This document shows positions 1 to 17,418 of a DNA stretch of 18,305 nucleotides, piece by piece. A program made the position numbers and the translations under genes. The stretch is from the IMG/VR virus record IMGVR_UViG_2529292906_000017; one strand, 5' to 3'. Each line of letters opens with the position of its first letter. The stretch's first letter is position 1. The notes below the pieces were generated by a model. The model was given only the letters and a program-made list of their open reading frames with translations. It did no database searches and had not been told where the DNA came from. The DNA is from a virus (taxonomy: Duplodnaviria; Heunggongvirae; Uroviricota; Caudoviricetes).

Positions 1-1284
1 TTACAGACTTCTGGAAGGTTGCGCAGCTCTTACAACACGCGGTTGATCTTCCGCAGCGTCTTCCAGCGCACTTAAATCACGGTCTTTCACCTCTGGCATT
101 TTCAGCGCAGAGATTAAACCAATCACTGAATATGCCATGATCATAATGGCGATCGGATACCAGGATTCCGTCATGGTGCAGAAAATACCCGCCAGGATAG
201 GACCAAAACCGGAAGCGATAAGACCACCAATTTCTTTAGAAATAGCCATCCGGGTAAAGCGGTTTTTACAGCCGAACATTTCTGCCATGGTAATGTTTTC
301 CAGAGCAAATAATCCCAGCACCGCACAGTTATGAATCACAATCAGTGCAACCATAATGGTGCTCGGGGCATAGCTTTTATCTACAATGATAGAAAGCATT
401 GGCCATGCCAGCACAATCGCGGAGGTATTCATAATAATATACGGGATCCGGCGACCAATTTTATCGGATAACCAACCAAGGAACGGAATGGTCATAAAGC
501 CGAGAATCGAACTGATCATCAATGCATCTGTTGGAATTGCTTTGTTAAACAATAACGTCTGCACTAAATAGCCTGCAAGGAAAGTCTGAATTAACCCGGA
601 GTTACCCGCCTGACCAAAACGCAGCCCTGTTGCCAGCCAGAAGGATTTGCTCTGGAACATGCTACCAGCAGGTGCAGGTTTTGCTGTCGGTTGGTTACTG
701 TCGTTAACCTTCTCAAAGACCGGGCTTTCTTTCAGATTCATACGCAACCAGATAGCAAAGACCATCACGACAACACTCGCCAGGAACGGTATACGCCATC
801 CCCACGCCAGCAGTTCCTCTTTACTGAGAATGAAGAACATAAAGGCCCAGATTGCCGTTGCGCTCAAGGTTCCGCAGTTAGTTCCCATAGCCACAAATGA
901 GGAGATAATTCCGCGCTTACCTTTTGGCGCATATTCCGCCAGCATCGTACCGGCACCGGAAATTTCCGCACCTGCACCCAACCCCTGAATAATACGCAAC
1001 GTCACCAGCAAGATGGGTGCAAAAACACCAATCTGTGCATAGGTCGGTAACACACCAATTAAGGTGGTACAGATCCCCATCATGGTGATGGTAATAAAGA
1101 GCACTTTTTTACGCCCTATTCTGTCGCCCATTTTGCCGAAAATAAATGCTCCGACAATACGCGCCACATAACCTGCACCGTAGGTTCCCATTGCCAGAAT
1201 TAACGCCATTGCCGTTGATGATTCAGGAAAAAATATTTCATGAAACACTAACGCTGCGCCGAGCGAATATAACTGGAAATCCAT
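1..1284 (-). CDS. ydfJ: MFS transporter (metabolite:H+ symporter family), probably 5'-truncated at the prophage junction
   Basis: 427-aa ORF with MFS motif GDRIGRKKVLF and multiple hydrophobic helices. The first Met aligns with the internal (E-W)-x-D-F position of MHS transporters and an in-frame stop lies 2 codons upstream, so about 25 N-terminal residues are missing. Confidence 0.8.
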   Translation of the reverse strand: MDFQLYSLGAALVFHEIFFPESSTAMALILAMGTYGAGYVARIVGAFIFGKMGDRIGRKKVLFITITMMGICTTLIGVLPTYAQIGVFAPILLVTLRIIQGLGAGAEISGAGTMLAEYAPKGKRGIISSFVAMGTNCGTLSATAIWAFMFFILSKEELLAWGWRIPFLASVVVMVFAIWLRMNLKESPVFEKVNDSNQPTAKPAPAGSMFQSKSFWLATGLRFGQAGNSGLIQTFLAGYLVQTLLFNKAIPTDALMISSILGFMTIPFLGWLSDKIGRRIPYIIMNTSAIVLAWPMLSIIVDKSYAPSTIMVALIVIHNCAVLGLFALENITMAEMFGCKNRFTRMAISKEIGGLIASGFGPILAGIFCTMTESWYPIAIMIMAYSVIGLISALKMPEVKDRDLSALEDAAEDQPRVVRAAQPSRSL

Positions 1285-1887
1285 AATTCACAGGTGTTTT
1301 TTCCCATCCTGTGGTTTCCTTGGCGTTTTCTAGGTTTTTTCAGATAGTTGCATTTTTTAAAAAGCATCCTAAGTTCGATCTCAGTGTCTATCTGGGGCCC
1401 ATTTCTGTCCCATATATGCCCCAAAAAAACTCCTCAACAGATAAGTAGTTTTTTCATGGAGTTACGCGTAAAATCAATAACGGCTGGAAATCATTCAATA
1501 CTCGCACTATCGAAAAATTTACCAGCCAACCGCAGCACGTTCTTGCATAAGGCGTGTCTGCGGTTTTTCAACTATTCAGATACATCACTCCCATCACATT
1601 CATTCCTCCACATCAAAGGCATATAGGCTATATCACCTTGATATTTTTCTTCTTCAGATAAAAACTGTTATCTATGTATACTTTTAAACCCAATCCGTGT
1701 AGAGTCTCTGCATAAGATAGTTTGCAGTTGCCACTTCAGCTTGCGCCATAAACCGCCTGATTTTTGCCGCCATCTGTTAGCATTCCTGTATACCTGAAAC
1801 GACAATGTTTATCTACGAACTTTAAGAACACCCAGGATAAAAATTGTCAACTATATCATATATAACACATTATTAATTCGAGGCTAT

Positions 1888-2001
1888 ATGAACAGCATAC
1901 TGATAATCACTTCGCTCCTTATCATATTCAGCATTTTTAGTCATGCTCTAATAAAATTAGGGATTGGCATATCCAATAACCCAGACAAAACCGATGTATA
2001 A
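1888..2001 (+). CDS. Candidate small hydrophobic protein (37 aa), unassigned
   Basis: ATG at 1888 preceded by GAGG about 8 nt upstream; translation [37 protein letters not shown] has one predicted TM helix. Not in the ORF track (under 60 aa). Could be chance in AT-rich DNA. Confidence 0.2.
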
Positions 2002-2069
2002 GTCAACATATCCTGAATCAGACATACAATATCGCAATGAAAATCAATAATATTTTAAGGAATATATTC

Positions 2070-2302
2070 ATGAAATCAAAAGACACCCTAAAGTGGTTCC
2101 CTGCGCAGCTTCCTGAAGTCAGAATTATCCTAGGGGATGCTGTAGTGGAAGTAGCAAAACAGGGAAGACCTATCAATACCAGAACATTGCTTGATTACAT
2201 TGAAGGAAACATAAAGAAAAATCATGGCTGGATAACAAAGAATTATTACAAACAGCGATATCAGTTCTTAAAGACAACCAAAATTTAAATGGTAAAATGT
2301 AA
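2070..2302 (+). pseudogene. ydfK: YdfK/YnaE-family cold-shock-induced protein with an apparent 1-bp contraction in an A run
   Basis: N-terminal part MKSKDTLKWFPAQLPEVRIILGDAVVEVAKQGRPINTRTLLDYIEGNIKK is in the frame of track ORF 2037..2288. A second open frame (KSWLDNKELLQTAISVLKDNQNLNGKM, stop 2300..2302) joins it only if the A5 run 2217..2221 were A6, giving 77 aa. Confidence 0.55.
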
Positions 2303-2618
2303 TATAATAAACTTACTTCTTTATCATTTTTCCACTTTAACAACATTTTGCTCCACTTTTCCACGACCAAACAACTTGAAATCTGGTTAAAATAACACGC
2401 AACACTATTCTTCTTCCTTGAGTCCGCCCGGAACTCGAAAAACAAACCGAGTTAAAGCCATTTTTCACAAAATCGATTTTGGGTCTCACCAAAGTTACGG
2501 GGTTGCATACGCATTCGTTTATTTTCGAACGTGTACATACAAATATGCACAAAAATAATCAAAATTATTTTCTGAGATGCATTATGATATGAACACCAAT
2601 TTCGTATAGAGTCTCACT

Positions 2619-3209
2619 ATGTCTCGAATTTTTGCTTACTGTCGGATATCAACGCTGGATCAGACCACCGAAAATCAACGCCGGGAAATCGAAAGTGCAG
2701 GTTTTAAAATCAAACCTCAGCAAATAATCGAAGAACACATTAGCGGCTCAGCAGCAACCAGTGAGCGTCCTGGTTTTAACCGGTTGCTTGCTCGCCTGAA
2801 ATGTGGTGATCAATTGATTGTGACAAAACTGGATCGCCTTGGTTGTAATGCAATGGATATCAGGAAAACAGTGGAACAACTGACCGAAACAGGTATCAGA
2901 GTGCATTGCTTAGCATTGCGGGGCATTGACCTGACCAGTCCAACAGGAAAAATGATGATGCACGTAATTTCAGCAGTCGCTGAATTTGAACGAGACCTTT
3001 TACTTGAACGCACTCATTCCGGGATAGTAAGAGCCCGCGGCGCAGGGAAACGTTTTGGTCGACCACCTGTGTTAAATGAAGAACAGAAACAGGTGGTATT
3101 CGAACGAATTAAGTCAGGTGTAAGTATAAGTGCCATTGCCCGGGAATTCAAAACCTCGCGGCAAACCATTTTAAGAGCCAAAGCAAAACTTCAGACACCT
3201 GACATATAA
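2619..3209 (+). CDS. pinQ: Serine recombinase / DNA invertase (Hin/Gin/Pin family)
   Basis: 196-aa ORF; N-terminus [20 protein letters not shown] carries the resolvase/invertase catalytic Ser motif and there is a C-terminal HTH ([20 protein letters not shown]). Symbol inferred from Qin-like context. Confidence 0.88.
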
Positions 3210-3306
3210 AAAATAATCTCGGTGTGAGATGCTTTACGTCTTCCAAGCCCCCTTCCTTGCCGTAAATGGAGAGATACATCTAATTATAGAATTTATATGT
3301 TTTACC

Positions 3307-3882
3307 CTACGGCAGTGCTGGCCATTCAATATCCGGTGCAGTTGATGTATCAACACGGTTCAGCAACACCCGATACTTTTTCCAGGCTTCCAGCAACAAG
3401 GTTTCTTCCTCCGTTGCGATCTCCAGATCCACAGCATCCTGAAGCGGCGCTATATGCTCACTGGCTATCTGCATCAGGCTGTTTTTTGTTTCTTCCGCCT
3501 CCCGGATCCGGAACAGTTTTTCTGCTTCCGTATCCTTCACCCAGGCTGTGCCGTTCCACTTCTGATATTCCCCTCCCGGCGATAACCAGGTAACATTTTC
3601 CGGTAACGGACCGAGTTCAGAAATAAATAACGCGTCGCCGGAAGCCACGTCATAAACCGTTTTACCCCGATGATCTTCAACGAGATGCCACGATGCCTCA
3701 TCACTGTTGAAAACAGCCACGAAGCCTGCCGGAATATCTGGCGGTGCAATATCGGTACTGTTTGCTGGCAGACCTGTATGAGGCGGAATATATGCGTCAC
3801 CTTCACCAATAAATTCATTAGTTCCGGCCAGCAGATTATAAATTTTTATGGTCCGTGGTTGTTCACTCATTCTGAATGCCAT
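3307..3882 (-). CDS. tfaQ: Tail fiber assembly protein (lambda Tfa-like)
   Basis: 191-aa ORF, near-identical over its length to lambda Tfa as recalled ([24 protein letters not shown]...). Start overlaps the stop of the upstream stf fragment. Confidence 0.85.
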
Positions 3883-4190
3883 TACGCAAGCCTCACAATA
3901 TAGTTAAATGCGATGTTTTTGACGGTGTTTTCCGCGTTACCAGCAGCGTTAACGGTGATGGTATGTCCATGTGAACCAATCGCAACGGAGTGCGTATGAG
4001 CACCAATACCGACAGTATGTGCGTGTGCACCTGCGCTTGCAGCAGTACCCGATACAGAGTGCGTATGAGCGCCTGCAGAAGAAGTGTTAACACTGTATTT
4101 AGAATAATCAGGTGATCCACTTCCCGGAGCACCACTGGAACCACCTGAAACAAATGTCATCGAATGGGTATGTGCACCGGCTGTCCCCAT
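3882..4190 (-). pseudogene. stfQ: C-terminal remnant of side tail fiber protein (Stf) with GAHTHS repeats
   Basis: 102-aa ORF with repeated GAHTHS motifs, ending [11 protein letters not shown] as in lambda Stf C-terminus. Only about 100 codons remain; the upstream part is replaced by a J fragment in another frame. Confidence 0.75.
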
Positions 4191-5437
4191 GCATTTACCG
4201 CCCGGACTGTCAGCCTGTAATTTCCCAGCGCCAGCTGCGTGAAGCGATATGTGGTTTCCGTCGTCCGGGCCGTGCTGACCAACCGCTCACTGCCGTCGTC
4301 CGCTGCCACGGTCAGGCGAAGCATAAAGCTCACCCCCTTCACCACCTTCGGCGTGTCCCAGCGCGCCAGCACCTGGTATTCCCCGCTGTCTGCGGTGACT
4401 TCTGCGGTCAGGTGCTGAACTGCTGGCGGCGTGACACCATTCACCGTGCCGCTCTGGTCACCGTCAAAGTGCGCCCCGTTATCCACGATGGCTTCTTTCT
4501 CCGGTACATGCTGCACGGCAGTGATGGCATACGTACCGTCATCGTTCTCACGGATACTCACACAGCGGAACAGGCGCTGACGCAGCGTCGGCAGCTTCAG
4601 CCCCCACACGCTGTACTCGGCAACGCCGTCAGGAACCCGGCTCACTTTCACCTTCACGCCGTCGGTGACGGACTGGACCTCCACGCTCACCGGATTACCC
4701 TGCCCGTCAACCAGGCTTATCAGCGTGGTGCCGGAGGATGGCAGCGTGATTTCACGGTCGAGCGTCAGTGTCCGCGTCTGGCTGTTCACCGCCAGCACGC
4801 GCCCGCCGATGCTGATCCCCGCATAGTCATCATCACAGATTTCAATGACATCACCTGGTACATGGCGAAGCCCTTCGGCACCCACGCTGAAGTCCACGGT
4901 CTGCGTTTCCAGCAGTTCCGTTTTAATCAGCCACAGCCCGGCTCGGTGCGCCTGCCCCCGCCTGGTACAGCCAAAGGCATCCATCTTCGTGACGTTACGA
5001 CCGTAACGGGCAATGGCCTGCGTGTCCTCCACAAGCTCTGTCGCCGTCTCCCAGCCGTTATCCGGGTCAATCCAGTTCACCTCAACGGCATTATGGCGGT
5101 CCTTCAGGGCGCTGAAGCTGTAGCGGAACGGCGCGCCATCATCCGGCATCACCACATTACTGCGGTTATAGGTCCACACCTTATCTGATGGTCGGTCCTG
5201 CACGAACGTCAGCGTCTGCCCGTTCCATACCGGCATACAGCGCATCGCCGAGCAGAAATCACTGAGAACATCCCACGCCTTACGCTGTGTGGTCAGCCAG
5301 GCATTACAGGTGATGCGCGGCTCCGTGCCGCCAAAACCGTCCGGCACCGACTGGTCGCAACACTGGCCGATGACATACAGCGCCCATTTATCCACATCTG
5401 CCGCACCAAGACGTTTACCCATGCCGTAGCGCGGGTG
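4157..5437 (-). pseudogene. Internal fragment of tail tip / host specificity protein J (lambda gpJ-like)
   Basis: Translation from HPRYGMGKRLGAADVDKWALYVIGQ to [11 protein letters not shown] matches lambda J mid-region closely. The first 29 residues of the 455-aa track ORF are an out-of-frame read of Nu1 DNA, and the C-terminus diverges 7 codons before the stop. Confidence 0.8.
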
Positions 5438-5672
5438 GCTGGAGATCTGTCTCGCTGGCCTGCCGCAGTTCTTCAACTTCCCGGCGCAGCTTTTCGTTCT
5501 CAATTTCAGCATCCCTTTCGGCATACCATTTTATGACGGCGGCAGAATCATAAAGCACCTCATTACCCTTGCCACCGCCTCGCAGAACGGGCATTCCCTG
5601 TTCCTGCCAGTTCTGAATGGTACGGATACTCGCACCGAAAATGTCAGCCAGCTGCTTTTTGTTGACTTCCAT
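5415..5672 (-). pseudogene. nohQ: Terminase small subunit Nu1, N-terminal DNA-binding fragment fused into J-derived sequence
   Basis: Translation MEVNKKQLADIFGASIRTIQNWQEQGMPVLRGGGKGNEVLYDSAAVIKWYAERDAEIENEKLRREVEELRQASETDLQP matches lambda Nu1 residues 1-79; homology ends at about 5436 and the frame then reads into J DNA. Confidence 0.8.
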
Positions 5673-5679
5673 TGTTCAT

Positions 5680-5880
5680 TCCACGGACAAAAACAGAGAA
5701 AGGAAACGACAAAGGCCAAAAAGCCCGCTTTCAGCACCTGTCGTTTCCTTTCTTTTCAGGGGGTATTTTAAATAAAAACATTAAGTTACGACGAAGAAGA
5801 ACGGAAACACCTTAAACCGGAAAATTTTCATAAATAGCGAAAACCCGCGAGGTCGCCGCCCCGTAACCTGTCGGATCACC
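5680..5880 (-). other. Lambda-type cos site (cosB, cosN at 5850..5861, cosQ-side flank)
   Basis: Reverse complement of 5673..5861 is GGGCGGCGACCTCGCGGGTTTTCGCTATTTATGAAAATTTTCCGG...GTCCGTGGAATGAACA, i.e. the lambda left end with about 5 substitutions and no indels as I recall it, directly upstream of the Nu1 start. Confidence 0.75.
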
Positions 5881-6060
5881 GGAAAGGACCCGTAAAGTGA
5901 TAATGATTATCATCTACATATCACAACGTGCGTGGAGGCCATCAAACCACGTCAAATAATCAATTATGACGCAGGTATCGTATTAATTGATCTGCATCAA
6001 CTTAACGTAAAAACAACTTCAGACAATACAAATCAGCGACACTGAATACGGGGCAACCTC

Positions 6061-6294
6061 ATGTCAACGAAGAACAGAACCCGCAGAACAACAACCCGCA
6101 ACATCCGCTTTCCTAACCAAATGATTGAACAAATTAACATCGCTCTTGAGCAAAAAGGGTCCGGGAATTTCTCAGCCTGGGTCATTGAAGCCTGCCGCCG
6201 GAGACTGTGCTCAGAAAAAAGAGTTTCTTCTGAAGCAAACAAAGAAAAGAGTGACATTACTGAATTGCTCAGAAAACAGGTCAGACCTGATTGA
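6061..6294 (+). CDS. ynfO: Small ribbon-helix-helix-like prophage protein (77 aa)
   Basis: 77-aa ORF MSTKNRTRRTTTRNIRFPNQMIEQINIALEQKGSGNFSAWVIEACRRRL; basic N-terminus plus beta-strand/helix pattern typical of Arc/CopG-type folds. Symbol from Qin gene order; fold assignment is inference. Confidence 0.6.
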   Translation: MSTKNRTRRTTTRNIRFPNQMIEQINIALEQKGSGNFSAWVIEACRRRLCSEKRVSSEANKEKSDITELLRKQVRPD

Positions 6295-6351
6295 AGCAAT
6301 TTAGATAATCGTGCAGACTACGCCCCCTCATATCACATGGAAGGTTTATCT

Positions 6352-6762
6352 ATGGATCAGGTAGTCATTTTTAAACAAATATTTGATAAAGTTCGAAACG
6401 ATTTAAACTATCAATGGTTTTATTCTGAGCTAAAACGTCACAATGTCTCACATTACATTTACTATTTAGCCACAGAGAATGTTCATATTGTATTAAAAAA
6501 TGATAATACAGTGTTATTAAAGGGCCTAAAAAACATTGTGTCTGTCAAATTTTCAAAGGATAGGCATCTTATAGAAACGACCTCTAATAAGCTGAAATCC
6601 AGAGAGATCACATTTCAGGAATACAGAAGAAACCTTGCTAAAGCAGGAGTTTTTCGGTGGGTTACAAATATCCACGAACAAAAAAGATATTACTATACCT
6701 TTGATAATTCATTACTATTTACTGAAAGCATCCAGAAAACTACACAGATCTTACCACGCTAA
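6352..6762 (+). CDS. ydfO: DUF1398-family prophage protein
   Basis: 136-aa product from the second Met ([30 protein letters not shown]...); the track ORF 6337..6762 adds 5 codons. Placement after ynfO and before gnsB matches Qin order. Confidence 0.7.
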
Positions 6763-6913
6763 ACCATAACGTCCGGCTTCTCTCACTCCTGAGCCGGACT
6801 GCATTGGTTTAATAAAAACCATCAACAATTGTGATTTAGATATTCGGAACCATTCAAATATAACAAAACCCCGTAAAAACGAGGTTTATGGATAAATTTT
6901 ATTATTGAATACA

Positions 6914-7086
6914 TCAGATTAAATTAATCTTGACATCATAGCTTTCAAGACCCGTCATTTTTTCCCGTGCGGTAAACTGAATACTGGTAACTTCTTTCCC
7001 GGTCTTTTTCTTAAGTTCAATAATTTTTTTGTTATATATTCAGAAATATCTGCTTCTGCTTTTGTTTTTAAGTTTTCAATATTCAT
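6914..7086 (-). pseudogene. gnsB: GnsA/GnsB-family protein with an apparent 1-bp contraction in a homopolymer
   Basis: From ATG at 7084..7086 the frame gives MNIENLKTKAEADISEYITKK and stops at 38 aa. A second frame reads IIELKKKTGKEVTSIQFTAREKMTGLESYDVKINLI to stop 6914..6916. They join into a 57-aa GnsB only if the T7 run 7024..7030 were T8. Confidence 0.65.
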
Positions 7087-7257
7087 CATTTCCTCTTTTA
7101 GTCTGTTATGACTTTCCAGTTACACAGTAAGTCGATTATATGGTGCAAACGTGTAAAAGATAAGATGAAACATCGCAATAATCAACATACGATAGTCTAA
7201 ATTTTACACAAACAGACAAAGAGAATTTTCCTGAATTATCAATGCAATAGCATCAAA

Positions 7258-7412
7258 TCAACTCAAGAGCCTTATTGCTGCTTCCAGAATTTCTTCTGAA
7301 GTAACATGTCGATCCGCGGCTACATAAATGACTTTATGATCTCCGGTCAGAGATGGAAACCCTGCGGCCATTACAGTAAGGTGTGTTTTTCGCCATTTGG
7401 ATATTCACGCAT
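7258..7412 (-). pseudogene. ynfN: YnfN-like cold-shock-induced small protein with an apparent 1-bp contraction in a homopolymer
   Basis: ATG at 7410..7412 gives MREYPNGEKHTLL then stop. With one extra A in the run 7386..7390 the frame reads MREYPNGEKTHLTVMAAGFPSLTGDHKVIYVAADRHVTSEEILEAAIRLLS (51 aa), stop 7258..7260. Confidence 0.5.
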
Positions 7413-7529
7413 GATGGTGTTAACTCCAGTCATCGCTGGCACTACCACTGCTGGTTCAGAGTTAAAAAAACTATGATTTTTTCATGATGTTACCGTAGTA
7501 TGTGAGTATCCATCGAATAGACACCAAGC

Positions 7530-7560
7530 AAAAAAGCTCCCGAAGGAGCCTTCATTTTCA
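7530..7560. terminator. Hairpin with flanking A and T runs (possible bidirectional terminator downstream of cspI)
   Basis: AAAAAAGCTCC-CGAA-GGAGCC followed by TTCATTTTCACTTTTTT; on the minus strand the stem is followed by TTTTTTGC. Confidence 0.4.
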
Positions 7561-7756
7561 CTTTTTTAAATCCAACGACAGACGGCTGGCATTTAAGTAT
7601 TGTGAAATATTATCAAATGTAATCATCATTGATTTACAAAAGATACATTTTGCCCCGAAAGGATTCATGTCAGAAACATCAAAAGATGATGTTCTATACT
7701 GGGAACCATGACAACACGGGCATCTAAAGTGAATATGGTTTGTAATATTGTCTACC

Positions 7757-7969
7757 TCAAAGCGCCACTACATGAACAGCGGCAGGACCTTTAGGTCCGT
7801 TCTCAATACCAAATTCAACTTCCTGATTCTCAGTTAATGTTTTGAAATCGTTGCTCTGAATTGCTGAGAAATGGACAAACACATCTTTGCTGCCATCTTT
7901 CGGCGTGATGAAACCAAAACCTTTTTCAGGGTTAAACCATTTCACTAAACCAGTCATTTTGTTAGACAT
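7757..7969 (-). CDS. cspI: CspA-family cold shock protein
   Basis: 70-aa [41 protein letters not shown] with RNP1/RNP2-like motifs (KGFGFI, VFVHF). Confidence 0.9.
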
Positions 7970-8330
7970 AATTATTACCTTTTGAAGAAATTAGCCCTTG
8001 GGCAGAATGGTCCGAAAAAAATATCAGAGAGAAAAACCAACAAGGAAATCTCAAGAGGTACAAATAATAAAATTATAACAATGACTGCTTCAGATAAATT
8101 TGTAACAAACCAGAACACCATTAACGCATGATTAACCACCCATAGCAAGGATTACTTTTGTAAAGAAAAACACAGCAATGAAAGAATAGCTTTATTTATT
8201 AATAAAACGTGTCATTCTGATTAAGACCTTTTATCTTACCCTTAAGATTTCAGGAATTTTGGCTCATGGAAGAGTCCTTTTTATTTAAATTTTACATTCC
8301 GCGATGTAAATGTTCCGATTTAATATTACC

Positions 8331-9353
<1,023 letters not shown>

Positions 9354-9357
<4 letters not shown>

Positions 9358-9665
9358 AGATATTTATGATGAGGACGCTCGTGCTTATTGGCAGGATTTT
9401 CAATCTTAAAGGAGTACTGATGCTGCAGATAAGACTCAACTTTTTCTGACAATTTTTCTGCTACTTCCAGGAAGACTTGCCGGACGCTCCTTCTGGCTGC
9501 TGCCTCATAAAACTCCAGCGCAGCTCCTTCAACACGGTCCATGGCGACATCCAGGTCAAAAATTTCACCGTCAAAGCGTTCTTTGTCCTGTAAGGCTACA
9601 GTTACCGTAACTTTATTCTCAAAATTACGGACTCCTTTCACAACCAGTTCATAGTCTTGAGTCAT
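9354..9665 (-). CDS. ydfR: DUF1327-family prophage protein located between holin and endolysin
   Basis: 103-aa ORF MTQDYELVVKGVRNFENKVTVTVALQDKERFDGEIF...; 4-bp overlap with the endolysin start. Function unknown. Confidence 0.7.
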
Positions 9666-9669
9666 TGGA

Positions 9670-9885
9670 TTACTCTCCTCTCGCAGCCTTACGCCTGTCT
9701 TCTTTAATCTTGAAATAAAGATTTGTCAGATACGTCAGCAGGCCAAAAACCAGGCTACCCAGCACACCGATTGCAGCCCACTGTGACGGAGTTACTTTAT
9801 CGAGTAACTGCAATGCCCAGAAACCAGCATTACCCGCCGATGTGCCATAGGCAACACCTGTTGTTAACTTATCCATTGATTTCAT
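9670..9885 (-). CDS. essQ: Class II holin (phage 21 S-like pinholin) with dual-start motif
   Basis: 71-aa product [71 protein letters not shown]; two TM helices, Met1/Met4 dual start, charged C-terminus. The track ORF 9670..9960 extends upstream. Confidence 0.85.
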
Positions 9886-10104
9886 ATCCTCACCCCGATG
9901 TACACGGATGGTGCAATATGTTTGAAAAGATCGGAGTCTACGGGGTAGTTTTGACAGCACACGTTGTTCTCAACGGCGCTAAAAAAACATACACATTAAA
10001 AATGTGGGTAATTATTTTGAAAGAAAGTCATATATAAAATAATAATACGAGAAATGTTTTCATATTTAGTGTACTGTATACGGCCATTTATACAGGAAAA
10101 GCCT

Positions 10105-10275
10105 ATGTCAGAACGTAAAAACTCAAAATCACGCCGTAATTATCTCGTTAAATGTTCCTGCCCAAACTGCACCCAAGAGTCAGAACACAGTTTTTCAAGA
10201 GTACAAAAAGGTGCCCTTTTGATCTGCCCTCATTGCAACAAAGTATTCCAGACAAATCTTAAAGCTGTAGCCTGA
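10105..10275 (+). CDS. Small zinc-ribbon-like protein (56 aa), unassigned
   Basis: ATG at 10105 preceded by AGGAAAAG; MSERKNSKSRRNYLVKCSCPNCTQESEHSFSRVQKGALLICPHCNKVFQTNLKAVA has CxxC...CxxC spacing. The track ORF starts upstream at 10054. Confidence 0.45.
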   Translation: MSERKNSKSRRNYLVKCSCPNCTQESEHSFSRVQKGALLICPHCNKVFQTNLKAVA

Positions 10276-10333
10276 TTGATTTTATTAGTAACAAGTATTT
10301 TTTATATTTTAATAATATATTTAAAGCAGATAA

Positions 10334-10362
10334 TAAAAAACCCGCCTGAGCGGGTTTGAGAT
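10334..10362. terminator. Rho-independent terminator-like hairpin (stronger on the minus strand)
   Basis: AAAAAA-CCCGC-CTGA-GCGGG-TTT; reverse complement gives stem plus T6. Confidence 0.45.
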
Positions 10363-10517
10363 TGTGGTGCTTTTTGTGGGAGTCATCCACTTACGCACTT
10401 TGTTTTGCCATGCCAGCAGTTAGCTTCTGCTGTAAAACTATTCATGCAGCAAACCTGCACTTCACCACAATGGTTAGCATACTTTTCCTGATTAAGATTT
10501 TGGGTAATGACTCCAAC

Positions 10518-10895
10518 TTATTGATAGTGTTTTATGTTCAGATAATGCCCGATGACTTTGTCATGCAGCTCCACCGATTTTGAGAACGACAGCGACTTCC
10601 GTCCCAGCCGTGCCAGGTGCTGCCTCAGATTCAGGTTATGCCGCTCAATTCGCTGCGTATATCGCTTGCTGATTACGTGCAGCTTTCCCTTCAGGCGGGA
10701 TTCATACAGCGGCCAGCCATCCGTCATCCATATCACCACGTCAAAGGGTGACAGCAGGCTCATAAGACGCCCCAGCGTCGCCATAGTGCGTTCACCGAAT
10801 ACGTGCGCAACAACCGTCTTCCGGAGCCTGTCATACGCGTAAAACAGCCAGCGCTGGCGCGATTTAGCCCCGACGTATCCCCACTGTTCGTCCAT
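10518..10895 (-). CDS. insB: IS1 InsB transposase domain (InsAB' C-terminal part)
   Basis: [65 protein letters not shown]... matches IS1 InsB. Confidence 0.8.
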
Positions 10896-10914
10896 TTCCG
10901 CGCAGACGATGACG

Positions 10915-11214
10915 TCACTGCCCGGCTGTATGCGCGAGGTTACCGACTGCGGCCTGAGTTTTTAAATGGCGGAAAATCGTGTTGAGGCCAACGCCCATAA
11001 TGCGGGCAGTTGCCCGGCATCCAACGCCATTCATGGCCATATCAATGATTTTCTGGTGCGTACCGGGCTGAGAGGCGGTGTAAGTGAACTGTAGTTGCCA
11101 TGTTTTACGGCAGTGAGAGCAGAGATAGCGCTGATGTCCGGCAGTGCTTTTGCCGTTACGCACCACGCCTTCAGTAGCGGAGCAGGAAGGACATCTGATG
11201 GAAATGGAAGCCAC
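10915..11214 (-). CDS. insA: IS1 InsA with altered C-terminus from a shortened A-run at the frameshift site
   Basis: [43 protein letters not shown]... is InsA (zinc finger plus HTH), but the ORF ends ...[18 protein letters not shown] (99 aa) instead of ...RHLKNSGRSR (91 aa) because TTTAAAAACTC has A5 where IS1 has A6C. Confidence 0.8.
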
Positions 11215-11413
11215 GCAAGCACCTTAAAATCACCATCATACACTAAATCAGTAAGTTGGCAGCATTACCAGATTTTGCCAAATATGCTAGCCATTGTTTC
11301 ATGTATTGGACCTCCTTACTTTTTATTAAAGAGATCCAATATTCACTACTCTGTCCGTATCTCTACTCAGGCATCAGCCTTCTTCGTTATCGTATACAGA
11401 CGAGCGATGAATT

Positions 11414-11629
11414 TTAATCAGTAATGATGACATTTGCTGCTGCAGGACCTTTAGCACCACTCTCTATAGAGAAGGTAACCTTTTGACCTTCAAATAAGGT
11501 TCGATAATTATCATTCTGAATCGCAGAAAAATGCACAAACACATCTTTACTACCATCAACAGGAGAAATAAAGCCGAAACCTTTATCAGCGTTAAACCAT
11601 TTTACTAAACCAGTCATTTTATTTGACAT
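11414..11629 (-). CDS. cspB: CspA-family cold shock protein
   Basis: 71-aa [41 protein letters not shown]..., paralogous to the ORF at 7757..7969. Confidence 0.9.
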
Positions 11630-11929
11630 TCTACATTCCTTAACTTGAGCCTTTCGGCATAAATGGTTTGCATAACAGAAACGACTTCGTACTTAATTGG
11701 AGAGACTCAAAGAAGGAATAAGTGAATAACACCTGAAATGAGAACTGCTTTAGTAAACTACTTCGTATATCGTCTGTTCTTCAAACCGACGCAATCATTA
11801 ACGCATAGTTGAACATATGAAGCAATGTTTATTTTAGACATCCAGCCATCTTCAACCCCATCAAAAAACTATAGCTTTCTTCAGGAACGTGTGTATAGTG
11901 CGCCAAGTTATCAGTATTAAGGAATTTTT

Positions 11930-12142
11930 TTGTCCCGTAAAATGACAGGAATTATCAAAACCTTTGACGGCAAAAGCGGCAAGGGTCTTATCACCCCATC
12001 CGATGGTCGTATCGATGTCCAGCTTCATGTTTCAGCGCTCAATCTCCGCGATGCAGAAGAAATTACCACCGGATTACGCGTGGAATTTTGCCGGATAAAT
12101 GGTCTGCGTGGCCCTTCAGCTGCCAATGTTTACCTTTCATGA
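11930..12142 (+). CDS. cspF: CspA-family cold shock protein paralog, apparent TTG start
   Basis: 70-aa ORF (M)[43 protein letters not shown]...; first codon at 11930 is TTG, with AAGGA upstream. Confidence 0.8.
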
Positions 12143-12196
12143 GCTATATTAAAGCTTTAATTTCAGGCCCCATCGGATCACACATGGAGAGTTTTT

Positions 12197-12286
12197 ATGA
12201 ATAACCCCGTCTGTCTTGATGACTGGTTGATTGGCTTTAAAAGCTTATGCTGTACTTTGGCCGTAATAGCTCTGCTAATAATATAA
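12197..12286 (+). CDS. Candidate small membrane peptide (29 aa), unassigned
   Basis: ATG at 12197 preceded by GGAGAG; [29 protein letters not shown] has a hydrophobic C-terminus. Very short; could be chance. Confidence 0.2.
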
Positions 12287-12440
12287 TAAGCAGACTCATT
12301 GTGTTTAGGGACATTGTACTGGAAGAAAACATTTTAAACATCAGGCAAATAACCAAGTCACCAGCTAAATAATAAGTTAACAGACATGAGTCCCGGGATG
12401 AGATTCAACATTACCATTGCCCCATTTAAAGCACAAAACC

Positions 12441-12464
12441 CGCTCATCAGCGGGTTTTCTACTT
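12441..12464 (-). terminator. Terminator hairpin about 100 nt downstream of the Q gene (tR'-like)
   Basis: AAACCCGCT-CATC-AGCGGGTTTT with T-rich tails on both strands. Confidence 0.5.
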
Positions 12465-12502
12465 TTTCTTAACGTCGGGTATACAAAGCCCATCGTTGAA
12501 AA

Positions 12503-12531
12503 ATTTTATCCATATTTTTTGAAAAATGCAA
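12503..12531 (-). promoter_or_regulatory. Putative Q-dependent late promoter (pR'-like)
   Basis: On the minus strand TTGCAT (12526..12531), a 17-nt spacer, then TAAAAT (12503..12508), immediately downstream of the Q stop and upstream of the terminator hairpin. Arrangement resembles lambdoid pR'-tR'. Confidence 0.35.
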
Positions 12532-12562
12532 ACATCATGTCGCCATCTTCAGCAAAAATCAT

Positions 12563-13315
12563 TTATCTCGTCACCTTCCTCAATTGCGCTTCCGCGTATG
12601 CTTCTTCCTGCCAGCACTTTGTTACCAGTTTACCAATGACGTCCGCATACCCCTTATACCACTGATAATCGGTCAGGTCTGGTACCAGCTTCTGGACATG
12701 ACGTCGTGCCAGCGTGGTCGGTAAACGACTAAACCGGTTTCCATTACAACGCCCACAAATCTTATATACCGGTACGCCATGAAACCGGGTTCTTTTTTCA
12801 TCCAGAACAATCCCTTTACCCTTACACCCTCTGCACGCTGTGCTGGCTTCGCCCTTACCATGGCAATGCTGACATAGTTCCTTCACCCATTCTTCCTTGA
12901 TTACAGATTCCCCGCGTCTGTAGTGTTTCACCACTTCGCGCAATACATTATAAAATCCCGTACCTGAACAATGCTCACAGCGAGCCTTACTTGCCGCAGA
13001 CCTGGAGTAATCAGCAAAGGCAAAACTCACGAGGTAAGGAATAATCTGTAACCGGATTTCTTCACTCAATTTGTTCAATGTCGGGTTATCCAGTGCCATC
13101 GCGTAATTTAGCAGGCCTTCAATCGCAAACTGAGGGTCCTGAACACCAACTTTTGCCAGAAATAAGGCCAACCCAAGTGGTGCTTTCGACTGCACCATCC
13201 CCTGCGCTGCCATTACATCCGTAATTGTTAAACAACCGGTGCCTGTCGCTGGAGCGTCATCGCTCAATTTTGGAGATTTTGGGGAGTAATATTTTGGTAA
13301 GGCTTCAAGGTTCAT
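12563..13315 (-). CDS. quuQ: Late-gene antiterminator Q (phage 82-type)
   Basis: 250 aa from MNLEALPKYY...; Cys-rich zinc-binding region CEHCSGTGF...CQHCHGKGE...CRGCKGKG...CGRCNGN. The track ORF 12563..13345 adds 10 upstream codons. Confidence 0.85.
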   Translation of the reverse strand: MNLEALPKYYSPKSPKLSDDAPATGTGCLTITDVMAAQGMVQSKAPLGLALFLAKVGVQDPQFAIEGLLNYAMALDNPTLNKLSEEIRLQIIPYLVSFAFADYSRSAASKARCEHCSGTGFYNVLREVVKHYRRGESVIKEEWVKELCQHCHGKGEASTACRGCKGKGIVLDEKRTRFHGVPVYKICGRCNGNRFSRLPTTLARRHVQKLVPDLTDYQWYKGYADVIGKLVTKCWQEEAYAEAQLRKVTR

Positions 13316-13328
13316 GCTCGTTCTCCAC

Positions 13329-14417
13329 TTACGCCAGTACGCCAATTGCCAGCGCGCGATCGATAAAACGAAATATCAGCTCCAGTTGGGAGCCATACTT
13401 ATCTTCAAATGCCACTGTATCCGTATGCAGCTCGTTGTGATGCTTTCTGCACAAAGGCAACACAAAGAGATCATGTGCTTTTGTTCCCATTCCGCCCTGC
13501 CCGTGACCAATCAGATGATGCGGATCGTCGGCTGGCATACCGCAGCAAGCACACGGCTGTGTCTTAACCCAACGTGTGTATTTCTCCTTAACCCAGCGGC
13601 GACGTTTAGGCAGCTTCATGAAAGATTCCGGAGACTCTGGATCAACGGTGATGCTTACCACCGTCTTTTCCTGTGGTGATTTTTGTTGCTGGTGGGCGTA
13701 AGGCAACGGTGCAAGATTTTTTGTGCGTTGTTTCAATATGCTGGTGGCGGTCTGCTCTCCCGGTACGATGTCGCTTTCGCGGTACACCGAGCAGATTTTT
13801 TCCGCTGGTAATCCCAGCGAACGACGCGATACAGCCTCAGGTAGTGCATCCACCACCTGATTGCAGACCGCCCACCAGGATAATTCAGCCAAAGATAATT
13901 CCCGCTCCTGCGTACCGCTTATTGCGTGACGGATGACGTCAATCACCCATGCTGTCAGATTTTGTTGAGCAAGCAGCTCCAGTGATTCCGATGTCTGGTC
14001 ACGCAGTTGGTTGTCGCAGTGCCAGCACAACACCATTGCGCCGGTACCATAACGGTGAATGACTGTTTCAGTGTGATGGTAATCGCCATTAGGCCACTGG
14101 CAGGATGTAACATGACGTAATAGCCAGTCGGACAATGCGCCAACGCCGCCAGCAGCACGAATCACCCGTTCGTTACTAAAAAACGGCAGCAATGTTTTGT
14201 CTTCCGCCAGCGGCTGGCGAACGGCAGGAACGACTCCGGATGGCAGATTACGCATGCTTTTTGGTTCCGGTTCCACCAGCACTCGAGGATTATGAAATAT
14301 CTGTATGGATTCACGGCCCGGCTTAAGGACCACCAGCCCAAGCTCAGGCACCAGAACAGGTCTAAGTAATACCCGCACGTTACCTCCAGATCCGTTGCTG
14401 GAAAGTGCGGGACGCAC
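13329..14417 (-). CDS. ydfU: DUF968-family prophage protein with Cys/His cluster
   Basis: 362-aa track ORF; C-terminal region TQPCACCGMPADDPHHLIGHGQGGMGTKAHDLFVLPLCRKHHNELH suggests a metal-binding (HNH-like) motif. True start uncertain (Met1 or Met55). Confidence 0.7.
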   Translation of the reverse strand: MRPALSSNGSGGNVRVLLRPVLVPELGLVVLKPGRESIQIFHNPRVLVEPEPKSMRNLPSGVVPAVRQPLAEDKTLLPFFSNERVIRAAGGVGALSDWLLRHVTSCQWPNGDYHHTETVIHRYGTGAMVLCWHCDNQLRDQTSESLELLAQQNLTAWVIDVIRHAISGTQERELSLAELSWWAVCNQVVDALPEAVSRRSLGLPAEKICSVYRESDIVPGEQTATSILKQRTKNLAPLPYAHQQQKSPQEKTVVSITVDPESPESFMKLPKRRRWVKEKYTRWVKTQPCACCGMPADDPHHLIGHGQGGMGTKAHDLFVLPLCRKHHNELHTDTVAFEDKYGSQLELIFRFIDRALAIGVLA

Positions 14418-14658
14418 GTGGTGGGCGTTCGGAATAAGGCAGCCTGACAGAGATTATCCAGTGCCGATAGTCGAGACTGAGAGCTTTCTTAACCTCGAAC
14501 CCGCGCCTGCGGTAAGAATGAATCAGCCATTCGGCCTGTTCTGCAGTGCATGGAGGGTGCTGGAACCATTCAGACTTGAATGCGTGAGAATACCGCCCGT
14601 GCGTGCAGGCAAGAACGGGCGAATTATCAGAATTGTAATATTTTGCGTTGCGTGCCAT
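14380..14658 (-). CDS. Hypothetical 92-aa protein overlapping the ydfU start, unassigned
   Basis: ATG preceded by GGAGAAAAC; MARNAKYYNSDNSPVLACTHGRYSHAFKSEWFQHPPCTAEQAEW... contains a C-x-H...H...C arrangement. Overlaps ydfU by 38 nt in a different frame. Confidence 0.4.
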   Translation of the reverse strand: MARNAKYYNSDNSPVLACTHGRYSHAFKSEWFQHPPCTAEQAEWLIHSYRRRGFEVKKALSLDYRHWIISVRLPYSERPPRASRTFQQRIWR

Positions 14659-14724
14659 CGGTTTTCTCCGGTGGCACGGTGTTACTCAGCGGGAGTTCAG
14701 CCCCGCGCAAGATTGTAGATGAGT

Positions 14725-14976
14725 TTATTCTCCTGAAAAAGCAGAAAAGCCAGCTTTTATTCCGATCTCTTTCAATGCCTGTAATGAAGTGACAAACTCA
14801 CCTTCGCGCAAGATAAATCCGTCCGTGACCCGAGCATCCACAAAATTAATTAACGCAGCCCCATTCTTTCGCAAACACATAATGCGGTAATGACTAACAA
14901 GATTTCCATTTTCAACGCACACAGCATAGAGGCCATCTTCACAAAAAATTTTACGCAGTTCTTCGATGTTCATCAT
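14725..14976 (-). CDS. rem: Rem-like 83-aa prophage protein
   Basis: 83-aa ORF MMNIEELRKIFCEDGLYAVCVENGNLVSHYRIMCLRKNGAALINFVDAR... between ydfU and hokD; symbol assigned from position and length only. Confidence 0.45.
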   Translation of the reverse strand: MMNIEELRKIFCEDGLYAVCVENGNLVSHYRIMCLRKNGAALINFVDARVTDGFILREGEFVTSLQALKEIGIKAGFSAFSGE

Positions 14977-15087
14977 CAGAATCCTTCCGGATAATTAGCT
15001 CTCCCCTTTAAGGGACCATCCCTCTTATCCCTGCGCGCTACTTAAGTATTTTTGATTCTATTCCGGCACCGTCCAGAACTTCAAACG

Positions 15088-15121
15088 CGTTGAAAATAAA
15101 AACAAAAACCCGCCGAAGCGG
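15088..15121 (-). terminator. Rho-independent terminator downstream of hokD
   Basis: Minus strand reads AACCCGC-TTCG-GCGGG followed by TTTTTGTTTTTATTTT; lies 70 nt past the hokD stop. Confidence 0.55.
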
Positions 15122-15192
15122 GTTAAGTGCGGGTGCGTTGAGGATGCCTGCCACATCAGAGGTGGCGAGGGATTTCTCCCCCGCCGGGTCTC

Positions 15193-15348
15193 TTACTCCT
15201 CAGGTTCGTAAGCTGTGAAGACAGCGACCTCCGTCTGGCCGGTTCGGATTCGTACCTCGCAGAGGTCTTTCCTCGTTACCAGTGCCGTCACTATGACGGT
15301 TAAACAGATGACGATCAGGGCGATTAACATCGCCTTTTGCTGCTTCAT
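15193..15348 (-). CDS. hokD: Hok-family type I toxin
   Basis: Reverse-complement translation MKQQKAMLIALIVICLTVIVTALVTRKDLCEVRIRTGQTEVAVFTAYEPEE (51 aa), GGAG upstream; not in the ORF track (under 60 aa). Confidence 0.85.
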   Translation of the reverse strand: MKQQKAMLIALIVICLTVIVTALVTRKDLCEVRIRTGQTEVAVFTAYEPEE

Positions 15349-15419
15349 AGCCTGCTTCTCCTGTCAACGCAAAGCAGAAGTGTCACCTTCGGTGCGAAAC
15401 AGAGATGTCATGCTTTGGT

Positions 15420-15707
15420 TCAGAGAATGCGTTTGACCGCCTCGCTATATACTTCCGAGCGTTCTCTTTTCCCAACAGAAATCACGAAAACGACAACTTT
15501 CTCGTCTATAACCTGGTATACAAGGCGATAGCCTGAAGACCGGAGCTTAATCTTGTAACAATCAGGCATACCACGGAGCTTGTTTGCTTCAATCCGGGGT
15601 GACTCAAGTACTTCAACCAGCTTCTTTTTCAACTGTTCACGTACCGTCGAGCCCAGCTTTCGCCATTCCTTTAGTGCCCGCTCGTCAAAATCCAGAAAAT
15701 ACGCCAT
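15420..15707 (-). CDS. relE: RelE mRNA interferase toxin (type II TA)
   Basis: 95-aa ORF MAYFLDFDERALKEWRKLGSTVREQLKKKLVEVLESPRIEANKLRGMPDCYKIKLRSSGYRLVYQVIDEKVVVFVISVGKRE. Confidence 0.9.
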   Translation of the reverse strand: MAYFLDFDERALKEWRKLGSTVREQLKKKLVEVLESPRIEANKLRGMPDCYKIKLRSSGYRLVYQVIDEKVVVFVISVGKRERSEVYSEAVKRIL

Positions 15708-15946
15708 CAGAGTTCATCCAGCGTCACACGTACTGGCTTAGGATTACGAAGCCGTTCTTTCACTATCTCCACAAGTTCAGCATCTTCATCACTCAGGAGT
15801 GTCTGTTTGAACGGCAAGCGTTCATTGTCAGCGATATACTCGAGCATGAGACGAAGCGCTTCAGAAGGAGTTACACCCATTTTTTCAAGCGCGGCGTAAG
15901 AACGCGCTTTAAGTTCATCGTCAATACGCAGGTTAATGCTACCCAT
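15707..15946 (-). CDS. relB: RelB antitoxin (ribbon-helix-helix)
   Basis: 79-aa ORF MGSINLRIDDELKARSYAALEKMGVTPSEALRLMLEYIADNERLPF...; 1-bp overlap with the relE start. Confidence 0.9.
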   Translation of the reverse strand: MGSINLRIDDELKARSYAALEKMGVTPSEALRLMLEYIADNERLPFKQTLLSDEDAELVEIVKERLRNPKPVRVTLDEL

Positions 15947-15957
15947 GTCTTACACCT

Positions 15958-15983
15958 CTTGTAATTACAAATGTCATTACAAG
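15958..15983 (-). promoter_or_regulatory. relBE operator (relO-like inverted repeat) at the relB promoter
   Basis: CTTGTAATTACAAATGTCATTACAAG contains inverted TTGTAAT/ATTACAA repeats immediately upstream of the relB SD (AGAGGTG). Confidence 0.6.
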
Positions 15984-16149
15984 TATCGCACTACAACATG
16001 CTTAGGGCAAGTCACGAAGGAAGTCAGAAAGTAGTCGTAAGAACGGTGATCACTGTCCGCTTTGTGCCAGGAGCAGCCATTGCTAAGTCCATCCTGTATT
16101 GTGCAGGTCAGCTCGTTTTTAAAGAGTCCGGCCATCATCTTACTGGTAC

Positions 16150-17037: not shown

Positions 17038-17091
17038 TGAACCGCCCCGGAAATCCTGGAGACTAAACTCCCTGAGAAAGAGGTAAACAGG

Positions 17092-17418
17092 ATGACTAAA
17101 AATACTCGTTTTTCCCCCGAAGTCCGTCAGCGGGCGATTCGTATGGTTCTGGAAAGTCAGGATGAATATGACTCACAGTGGGCGGCAATTTGTTCCATTG
17201 CCCCAAAGATTGGCTGTACGCCGGAGACTCTGCGTGTCTGGGTTCGCCAGCATGAGCGGGATACCGGGGGCGGTGATGGTGGGCTCACCACCGCTGAACG
17301 TCAGCGTCTGAAAGAGCTGGAACGTGAAAATCGTGAACTGCGCCGCAGTAACGATATCCTTCGCCAGGCTTCCGCTTATTTTGCGAAGGCGGAGTTCGAC
17401 CGCCTCTGGAAAAAATGA
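17092..17418 (+). CDS. IS3-family transposase OrfA (HTH plus leucine zipper)
   Basis: 108-aa [60 protein letters not shown]...[27 protein letters not shown]. Confidence 0.85.

Follow-up and report, generated by a model that had tools for sequence, protein, structure and literature searches.

The DNA analysed here is a stretch of 18,305 nucleotides, referred to below as the window. The feature of interest in it is, judged by sequence, the cos site of a cryptic lambdoid E. coli prophage of Qin type that is inserted beside ydfJ. The element is placed in the Qin prophage by its ydfJ-adjacent insertion, its Qin gene order and its near-identity to the K-12 element. BLAST matches it to the Qin prophage of K-12 MG1655 in three blocks of 98.5-99.9% identity, and the ydfJ part of the window (1..1352) is identical to K-12. 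The gene order is Qin-like throughout, running ydfJ, ydfK, pinQ, tfaQ, (cos), ynfO, ydfO, gnsB, cspI, rzpQ, rrrQ, essQ, cspB, cspF, ydfT, ydfU, rem, hokD and relBE. Unlike K-12 Qin, the window has an IS1 insertion (about 10503..11269) and, starting near 16175, IS3-family elements that cut the far prophage end. The features around cos are as follows:

3317..4031, minus strand: C-terminal end of stf and tfaQ, corresponding to lambda 21824-22538 (Pfam Phage_fiber, Caudo_TAP)
4177..5438, minus strand: internal fragment of J (tail tip), lambda 16347-17608, 92.6% identity (Pfam Phage-tail_3, Ig_J)
5436..5438, minus strand: deletion junction between lambda bp 427 (Nu1) and bp 16347 (J), with a 3-bp BLAST overlap (BLAST ends, junction sequence)
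5415..5672, minus strand: remnant open reading frame of Nu1 (TerS), 85 aa, comprising gpNu1 residues 1-79 and 6 foreign residues (translation comparison)
5697..5712, minus strand: R1 (lambda bp 151-166), TTGTCGTTTCCTTTCT against lambda CTGTCGTTTCCTTTCT, differing only at the edge base, bp 151 C>T
5738..5753, plus strand: R2 (lambda bp 109-124, inverted relative to R3 and R1), CTGTCGTTTCCTTTCT, identical to lambda
5754..5796, minus strand: R3-R2 interval (lambda bp 66-108), which contains the IHF site I1 and differs from lambda at bp 73 (A>G) and bp 102 (T>C)
5797..5812, minus strand: R3 (lambda bp 50-65), AGGTGTTTCCGTTCTT against lambda AGGCGTTTCCGTTCTT, changed only at bp 53 C>T
5812..5844, minus strand: I2 (lambda bp 18-50, including the critical bp 30-35), 100% identical to lambda
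5848..5863, minus strand: cosN, the 12-nt cohesive end (5850..5861) with 2 bp flanking each nick, identical to lambda
5885..5891, minus strand: cosQ (GGGTCCT), the packaging-termination subsite, identical to lambda and at lambda spacing from cosN
6061..6762, plus strand: ynfO (DUF3950) and ydfO (DUF1398), Qin cargo directly on the cosQ side (Pfam, K-12 annotation)

The initial annotation had described the morphogenesis region next to cos as gutted, and this is borne out by BLAST end points and Pfam searches. The TerL gene, the head genes and most tail genes are absent, and on the Nu1 side Pfam recovers only the N-terminal half of Nu1, the J fragment, a fibre repeat, tfa and pin. It should be added to the earlier description that Nu1 is truncated too, that cos lies on the minus strand, and that cosQ falls just outside the segment originally singled out (5680..5880). 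Homology to Nu1 ends at lambda bp 427, in codon 79 of 181. Up to that point only A75T separates the remnant from gpNu1, and Pfam aligns it to positions 1-81 of 164 of Phage_Nu1 (E = 1.4e-48). The winged-HTH DNA-binding domain is complete in the remnant; the central oligomerisation and C-terminal TerL-binding domains are missing.

Anatomy of the cos site

The lambda cohesive-end 12-mer, GGGCGGCGACCT, has one exact occurrence in the window, at 5850..5861 on the minus strand. Chance alone would give about one match to a 12-mer if up to two mismatches are allowed, so the 12-mer alone is not significant, and its significance comes from the collinear match to lambda in which it is embedded. In BLAST comparisons with NC_001416, window 5862..6223 matches lambda 48502..48141 (98.3% identity, E = 0) and window 5861..5436 matches lambda 1..427 (98.1%, E = 0). 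The total collinear match is 788 bp, about 98% identical, in which lambda 48141-48502 is joined to 1-427; on the minus strand it reads as the joined ends of circular lambda DNA, continuing into gene Nu1. Base-by-base alignment finds lambda 48167-48502 and 1-52 to be 100% identical in the window. In the window, the stretch from lambda bp 1 to the Nu1 ATG (bp 191, window 5672) departs from lambda by four substitutions and a 1-bp deletion, five differences in all:

lambda bp 53: C>T, window 5809
lambda bp 73: A>G, window 5789
lambda bp 102: T>C, window 5760
lambda bp 137/138: one base lost, after window 5726
lambda bp 151: C>T, window 5712

With an exact 12-mer and five differences up to the ATG, the near-perfect lambda-type cos proposed by the initial annotation (cosN at 5850..5861 and the cosB side through the Nu1 start) is confirmed. 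The alignment with lambda that had been suggested there finds the cosN nick region unmutated, R2 identical, R3 altered only at bp 53 and intact over bp 55-63, and R1 altered only at its edge.

At the level of the individual subsites, cosQ, which we take to lie at lambda 48473-48479 from reading the lambda end sequence and from the definition used by the Feiss laboratory, is 7 bp long, highly conserved and required for termination. The cosN site is defined as 16 bp, made up of the 12 bp of the cohesive end and two flanking bp on each side (PMC9026076), and I2 has been assigned to bp 18-50, with bp 30-35 critical (PMC4856287). R3 is regarded as the most critical R site, and its distance from cosN is also critical (PMC9026076). 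There are no indels from cosN to R2 in the window and the cosN-to-R3 spacing is as in lambda; the 1-bp loss falls in the R2-R1 spacer. NMR contacts of R3 with TerS have been located at bp 55-63, and packaging is affected by changes introduced at bp 56, 58 and 59 (PMC9026076). In the window the contacted bp 55-63 are identical to lambda, and bp 53 lies outside that segment and outside bp 56, 58 and 59. It is, however, the first base (C) of the CGTTTCC core common to R3, R2 and R1, and the only variant inside the conserved R core, and the change may cause a quantitative defect in R3 function. R2 and R1 have a 16-bp sequence in common (PMC9026076), and R1 plays an accessory, non-essential role. 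Overall, the R3-I1-R2-R1 order is kept, R2 is inverted and the R sequences are of lambda type.

Variation at cos in phages and Qin prophages

An alignment was made of the cos regions of lambda, K-12 Qin, the window and twelve lambda-like phages with deposited genomes. The R3 variant 53T is also found in 2H10, phiSTEC1575-Stx2k and Stx1_112808; 2H10 is an ICTV exemplar, and the phage status of the other two carriers rests on their record titles. Most of the panel has 73G and 102C, and the 1-bp loss at 137/138 is present in all twelve phages, leaving lambda as the odd one out. Similarly, 151T occurs in 2H10 and phiSTEC1575-Stx2k. Over lambda bp 1-200 the window differs from 2H10 at a single position, bp 134, where the window has the lambda base. 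Residues 75 and 132 are the only ones at which the TerS of 2H10 departs from gpNu1, and the 2H10 DNA-binding domain is therefore identical to that of lambda. In both lambda and 2H10 (Glaedevirus), the cosQ-cosN-I2-R3-I1-R2-R1 order and orientation are as in the window. These phages have complete TerS and TerL and a cos repeated along concatemers, whereas in the window TerS is truncated, TerL is absent and a single cos lies in the chromosome. No phage record is identical to the window cos, the best matches being 98.2-98.7% identical. Since every variant of the window cos occurs in deposited lambda-like phages, the site appears to lie within the natural range of working cos sites of lambda specificity. 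To the extent that sequence is a guide, the cos would be competent for a lambda-specificity terminase, and initiation there is plausible.

The closest relative of the locus is the cos/nohA module of K-12 Qin (nohA, b1548), which occupies the same ydfJ site with the same gene order and the same lambda-identical cosQ, cosN and I2. The arm running from Q through the lysis and cold-shock genes and ynfO/ydfO to cosQ is about 99.97% identical to the window over about 10 kb. The left arms differ: in K-12, Nu1 extends to lambda bp 719 (the 189-aa NohA) and is fused to stfQ, whereas in the window bp 1-427 are fused to the J fragment. The cosB/Nu1 haplotypes also differ, with 54A, 134A, 145G and 176G in K-12 Qin against 53T, 137G and 151T in the window. 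The K-12 change in R3, bp 54 G>A, is common to phage PhiR42_1 and occurs in Qin alleles with nohA and an annotated full-length TerL gene (IAI1). Alleles of this kind in IAI1 and strain 103 carry similar cosB variants.

Thirteen substitutions separate the window allele from K-12 over the roughly 10 kb of shared right-hand sequence, and 10 of the 13 fall in 280 bp of cosB and 5' Nu1, starting 52 bp from the nick (binomial P ~8e-14). Divergence between the window and K-12 is distributed as follows:

cosB and 5' Nu1 (280 bp): ~3.6%
remainder of the left arm, up to the end of the prophage: ~2.2%
Q-lysis-cosQ arm: ~0.03%
ydfJ (host gene): 0

Two haplotypes can be told apart on the cosQ side and two on the cosB side. 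All four pairings of them are represented among seven Qin alleles and the phage panel, which implies recombination within a segment of at most 69 bp that holds cosN. A breakpoint at cosN agrees with experiments on the K-12 prophage DLP12, where recombination with lambda is about 100-fold more frequent in the cos region than in other prophage regions and the junctions cluster at cos. The exchanges may have taken place in free phages before the element became defective, and for this reason they are no proof of present-day activity. Lambda qin phages (e.g. lambda qin111) and lambda qsr' are recombinants that acquired late-region sequences from these prophages. Fisher and Feiss are also said to have obtained, in 1980, cos+ revertants of a cos deletion via recombination with a K-12 defective prophage.

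DLP12 carries a counterpart of the present locus, cos/nohD, which is likewise a lambda-type cos in a defective prophage with a Nu1 homologue beside it, and its flanking ybcV/ybcW are paralogues of ydfO/ynfO. DLP12 lies at another chromosomal site, however, and is only about 91% identical over the ydfO-ynfO-cos-Nu1 segment. It has 3.35 kb in common with lambda, including part of A, whereas the window has only 788 bp around cos. In experiments, DLP12 recombines with lambda at or around cos, and its nu1, R and Rz can replace those of lambda.

The window allele, defined by its cos and Nu1/J junction, was found in 63 of 5426 complete E. coli genomes. Over the 701-bp query, the 25 copies listed show no differences (100% identity); they were found in human, livestock and environmental isolates. 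The broader ydfO-ynfO-cos-Nu1 arrangement, covered to at least 80%, is present in 2,445 genomes, a number that includes the paralogous DLP12 copy; the Nu1 homologue in these genomes is labelled nohA or nohD, 'DNA-packaging protein'. With a query anchored in the Qin cargo, about 1,050 genomes were found to combine this cargo with a lambda-type cos. In many other genomes, the same query showed the Qin right arm continuing into another packaging module, with a DUF1441 protein, a 700-aa TerL, DUF6148 and portal, that is without a lambda-type cos. Complete E. coli genomes in which the cos/nohA module is annotated number about a thousand or more. The novelty implied by the initial annotation does not hold, as the locus is the annotated Qin cos/nohA, an already known and ordinary relic whose DLP12 counterpart has been studied experimentally. 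A literature search found no direct reports on the Qin cos, and the Qin cos region is absent from the lists in the supplements of De Paepe 2014.

Several strains have the same right arm and cos, followed by varying lengths of the left arm:

IAI1 and strain 103: lambda 1 to at least 3927 (end of the examined stretch), with nohA, TerL, W and the start of portal
W5-6: left arm ends at lambda 1760
K-12: left arm ends at lambda 719
FORC 064: left arm ends at lambda 703
Window: left arm ends at lambda 427

None of the deleted alleles is derivable from another, which requires at least four independent, nested deletions. Their left end points all lie within 1.8 kb of cos. Protection of cos does not follow from this, as the queries that led to these alleles themselves contained cos. 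The idea that selection keeps cos in all Qin alleles was rejected on the result of the cargo-anchored query, given the many right arms without a lambda-type cos.

Helper packaging and the role of the site

The initial annotation had proposed that the element could be packaged in trans by a helper terminase of lambda type. Initiation requires cosN and cosB, and termination requires cosQ and cosN at the downstream end. A terminase of lambda specificity could be supplied to a Qin carrier by an infecting phage or an induced co-resident prophage. Dimers of TerS would bind R3-I1-R2 together with IHF, and TerL would nick cosN at 5850..5861. Terminase would then stay on the cosB end and translocate DNA toward decreasing window coordinates, along a path expected to run through the Nu1 remnant, the J fragment, tfaQ, pinQ and ydfJ and then into host genes. 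In strain AH21, which carries the window allele, the 50 kb downstream of cos are host DNA with ydfJ, ydfI, dcp, marRAB, the lsr operon and hipBA. No second cosQ-cosN was found in these 50 kb of this one carrier genome. A scan of the same 50 kb for cosN with up to two mismatches gave 4 extra matches against 3.3 expected, none with an adjoining cosQ. No second cos occurs elsewhere in the window, and in several carrier genomes the cos/Nu1 query has no other match anywhere.

Because no second cosQ-cosN follows within the 50 kb in AH21, the packaging run could not terminate there. Terminases of cos type need a second cos, and without the second cut the protruding DNA blocks tail attachment. The predicted outcome would be a filled, tailless and non-infectious head. 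Feiss et al. (2015) described how a prophage cos that matches the specificity of an infecting phage is used for initiation, so that the prophage is packaged together with adjacent bacterial DNA. In their account, a motor that has started at a lone prophage cos later stalls and yields a tailless, non-infectious particle, and an intervening crossover gives a recombinant phage. Of the packaging proposal, initiation by a lambda-specificity terminase can therefore be retained as plausible; a transmissible particle cannot, given that no second cosQ-cosN lies in the 50 kb downstream in AH21. The explanation that best fits the whole, and which we consider quite probable, is that the cos is a remnant of the packaging module of the ancestral phage, without an adaptive role, at which packaging would still be initiated, abortively.

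Other readings of the site were considered. In one, the element behaves as a satellite or cosmid, and a helper acting in trans packages it into infectious transducing particles. The cos looks complete (cosQ, cosN and cosB), and there are precedents for such packaging. Passive (tandem) prophages and cosmids resemble the present case in having a resident cos on which the terminase of a helper could act in trans to start packaging, and helpers package passive prophages lying between two cos sites. Those systems, however, have a second cosQ-cosN in the same orientation at a packageable distance, about 37-51 kb downstream, which is absent from the window and from the 50 kb in AH21. Cos-type phage-inducible chromosomal islands (PICIs), such as that of E. 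coli CFT073, are packaged by lambda and phi80 helpers and are likewise capsid-less chromosomal elements with a lambda-like cosQ/cosN beside a winged-HTH gene. They have no lambda R sequences, and their own Rpp redirects TerS; they excise, replicate and get packaged. The window instead has authentic lambda R3, R2 and R1 and a truncated Nu1 in place of rpp, and its resemblance to a PICI is superficial. The 18.3-kb window, which stops at the IS3-family elements before the far prophage end, showed no genes for an integrase, an excisionase, replication or an Rpp-type protein. K-12 Qin does not excise during lambda infection, and its integrase is annotated as a pseudogene. An element of about 20 kb is also well below the packageable minimum of lambda. 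Together with the single cos and the tailless particles predicted by Feiss et al. for a lone prophage cos, these points make infectious transducing particles extremely improbable. In another reading, the site could be a dead relic at which the change at R3 bp 53, other changes in cosB or the chromosomal context blocks productive terminase binding. The position of bp 53 in the CGTTTCC core of the three R sites, within the most critical of them, favours this, and the transition at the adjacent bp 54 in K-12 Qin could be read as decay of R3. Both variants are present in deposited phage genomes, however (53T in 2H10, phiSTEC1575-Stx2k and Stx1_112808, 54A in PhiR42_1), and 54A accompanies an annotated full-length TerL gene in IAI1. 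Neither base belongs to the contacted bp 55-63 or the critical bp 56, 58 and 59. Furthermore, far larger cosB differences are tolerated by lambda-specificity terminases, as N15 terminase packages lambda DNA, and 434 and phi80 have lambda specificity. Complete loss of function thus appears unlikely.

It has also to be asked whether the module has been selected for interference with phages, with cos serving as a decoy for terminase and proheads and the 85-aa Nu1 remnant poisoning TerS. The truncated TerS could heterodimerise with or compete against the incoming TerS, or occupy cosB, in the manner of Rpp. Besides a complete winged-HTH domain, the remnant has the dimer-interface residues 11-13, 43, 47 and 51, and Rpp heterodimerises with TerS through a mimic of this very domain. 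Feiss et al. note a lower yield of viable phage from initiation at a prophage cos, and neither cos nor the 5' end of Nu1 is removed by any of the four independent deletions. If interference did operate, the burst of lambda-specificity phages would be lower. Against it, a promoter scan near the remnant was at chance level (1 site versus 1.1 expected), and retention of 5' Nu1 is trivial at 25 bp from R1. The alleles were found with cos-requiring queries, and the unbiased query returned many Qin right arms with the other packaging module and no lambda-type cos. The 25 listed copies of the allele, being 100% identical over 701 bp, carry no information on selection. A selected interference function is accordingly judged very unlikely. 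A related idea is that toxicity of terminase at a chromosomal cos drives repeated deletions starting inside Nu1 or A. Terminase lethality in rec- cells was reportedly ascribed to chromosomal cos sites by Murialdo in 1988.

Consequences for lambdoid phages and their hosts

In itself the finding matters little, as it re-identifies the Qin cos/nohA module. Taking the site as a non-adaptive remnant of the ancestral packaging module, a lambda-specificity terminase probably breaks the chromosome here, and futile packaging would proceed toward ydfJ, marRAB, lsr and hipBA. Realistic consequences would be a double-strand break, a small drain on helper packaging and, above all, a hot spot of lambdoid recombination through marker rescue and arm exchange. 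Phages of lambda type grown on such strains can rescue or exchange cos and Nu1 sequences by recombination with the cos region. Such recombination is the reason given by the Feiss laboratory for plating on E. coli C, a host that lacks a lambda-type cosN. The series of Qin alleles, from those that keep nohA, TerL, W and portal to the heavily deleted ones, could also serve as a natural series for prophage decay and for arm exchange at cos.

Haplotype structure and natural variation at cos

Comparison of the window with the K-12 Qin locus places a haplotype break at cosN (5530..5861 set against the rest of 1..16174), the two alleles being near-identical in other respects. Across about 10 kb, 10 of the 13 substitutions that separate them fall in cosB and the 5' part of Nu1 (P ~8e-14). 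Divergence from K-12 is ~2% over the whole arm from cosN to the prophage end, compared with ~0.03% in the Q-lysis-cosQ arm and 0% in ydfJ. Furthermore, all four combinations of cosQ-side and cosB-side haplotypes are found among the window, K-12, five further Qin alleles and the panel of twelve lambda-like phages.

Within cosB, the CpG that starts the core of R3 (lambda bp 53/54, window 5809/5808) is naturally polymorphic. Lambda and strain 103 have CG at this position. TG is found in the window, FORC 064, strain 204446, phage 2H10 and two Stx phages, and CA in K-12, W5-6, IAI1 and PhiR42_1. The most critical TerS-binding site thus varies at one dinucleotide by two different transitions. The spacer between R2 and R1 is one base shorter than in the lambda reference in every panel phage (12/12) and every Qin allele examined (7/7); the outlier at bp 137/138 is lambda itself.

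Features of the cos-proximal region
5726 (after): base lost from the R2-R1 spacer, corresponding to lambda bp 137/138
5415..5672, minus strand: Nu1 remnant, 85 aa
5436: deletion junction of the window
4157..5524, minus strand: J-fragment ORF, 455 aa, with Phage-tail_3 and Ig_J domains

Decay of the morphogenesis arm

The Nu1 remnant retains a complete winged-HTH DNA-binding domain together with the dimer-interface residues 11-13, 43, 47 and 51, and carries no part of the region required for TerL binding. As a predicted ORF, it would in formal terms be built like a dominant-negative TerS fragment of the Rpp type. In its upstream part the J-fragment ORF reads through the deletion junction and shares sequence with the Nu1 remnant, in a different frame; its counterpart in RefSeq is annotated as an incomplete pseudogene.

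Taken with the Qin alleles of K-12, IAI1, strain 103, W5-6 and FORC 064, the window belongs to a decay series that comprises at least four independent deletions. The left end points (lambda bp 427, 703, 719 and 1760) all lie immediately downstream of cos; on the right, the deletions end within J or stf. In IAI1 and strain 103, nohA, TerL and W persist, as does the beginning of the portal gene. The window and FORC 064 have a J-17608/stf-21824 junction in common and differ in their first deletion. The clustering of left end points could reflect selection to kill the terminase in cells with a chromosomal cos, or it could be a product of ascertainment. In strain AH21, which carries the window's allele, the 50 kb downstream that would enter a head if packaging began here contain marRAB, eamA, the lsr quorum-sensing operon and hipBA, and finish close to a pair of site-specific integrase genes.

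Alternative arms, insertions and small deletions

Many genomes carry the right arm of Qin (ydfT to cspI, gnsB) next to another set of packaging and head genes, which encodes a DUF1441 protein, a TerL of ~700 aa, a DUF6148 protein and a portal, as exemplified by strains CNREC_004-43 and KE58. Both ynfO and the lambda-type cos are missing from this arrangement. The right arm can therefore be joined to at least two different left arms, of which the lambda-type cos/Nu1 arm is one.

Insertion elements in the window
~10503..11269: IS1 insertion, with InsA and IS1 transposase ORFs
16193..17005, minus strand: single transposase ORF of an IS3-family element
17092..18305, plus strand: orfA/orfB of a second IS3-family element

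The IS1 copy is intergenic, between the ynfU and cspB homologues, and is not present in K-12 Qin. The match to K-12 Qin ends at 16174, within the ydfV region, and the two IS3-family elements come after it (16175..18305); the window does not include the prophage's early/immunity half, with dicA, dicB and dicF.

Six single-base A/T deletions also distinguish the window from K-12 Qin, located after 7023, 7385, 7476, 8014 and 8741 and at 12499. They may have arisen as genuine pseudogenising mutations or as homopolymer errors of a long-read assembly. The rzpQ ORF encodes 140 aa in the window and 165 aa in K-12, a shortening that may result from the deletion after 8741.
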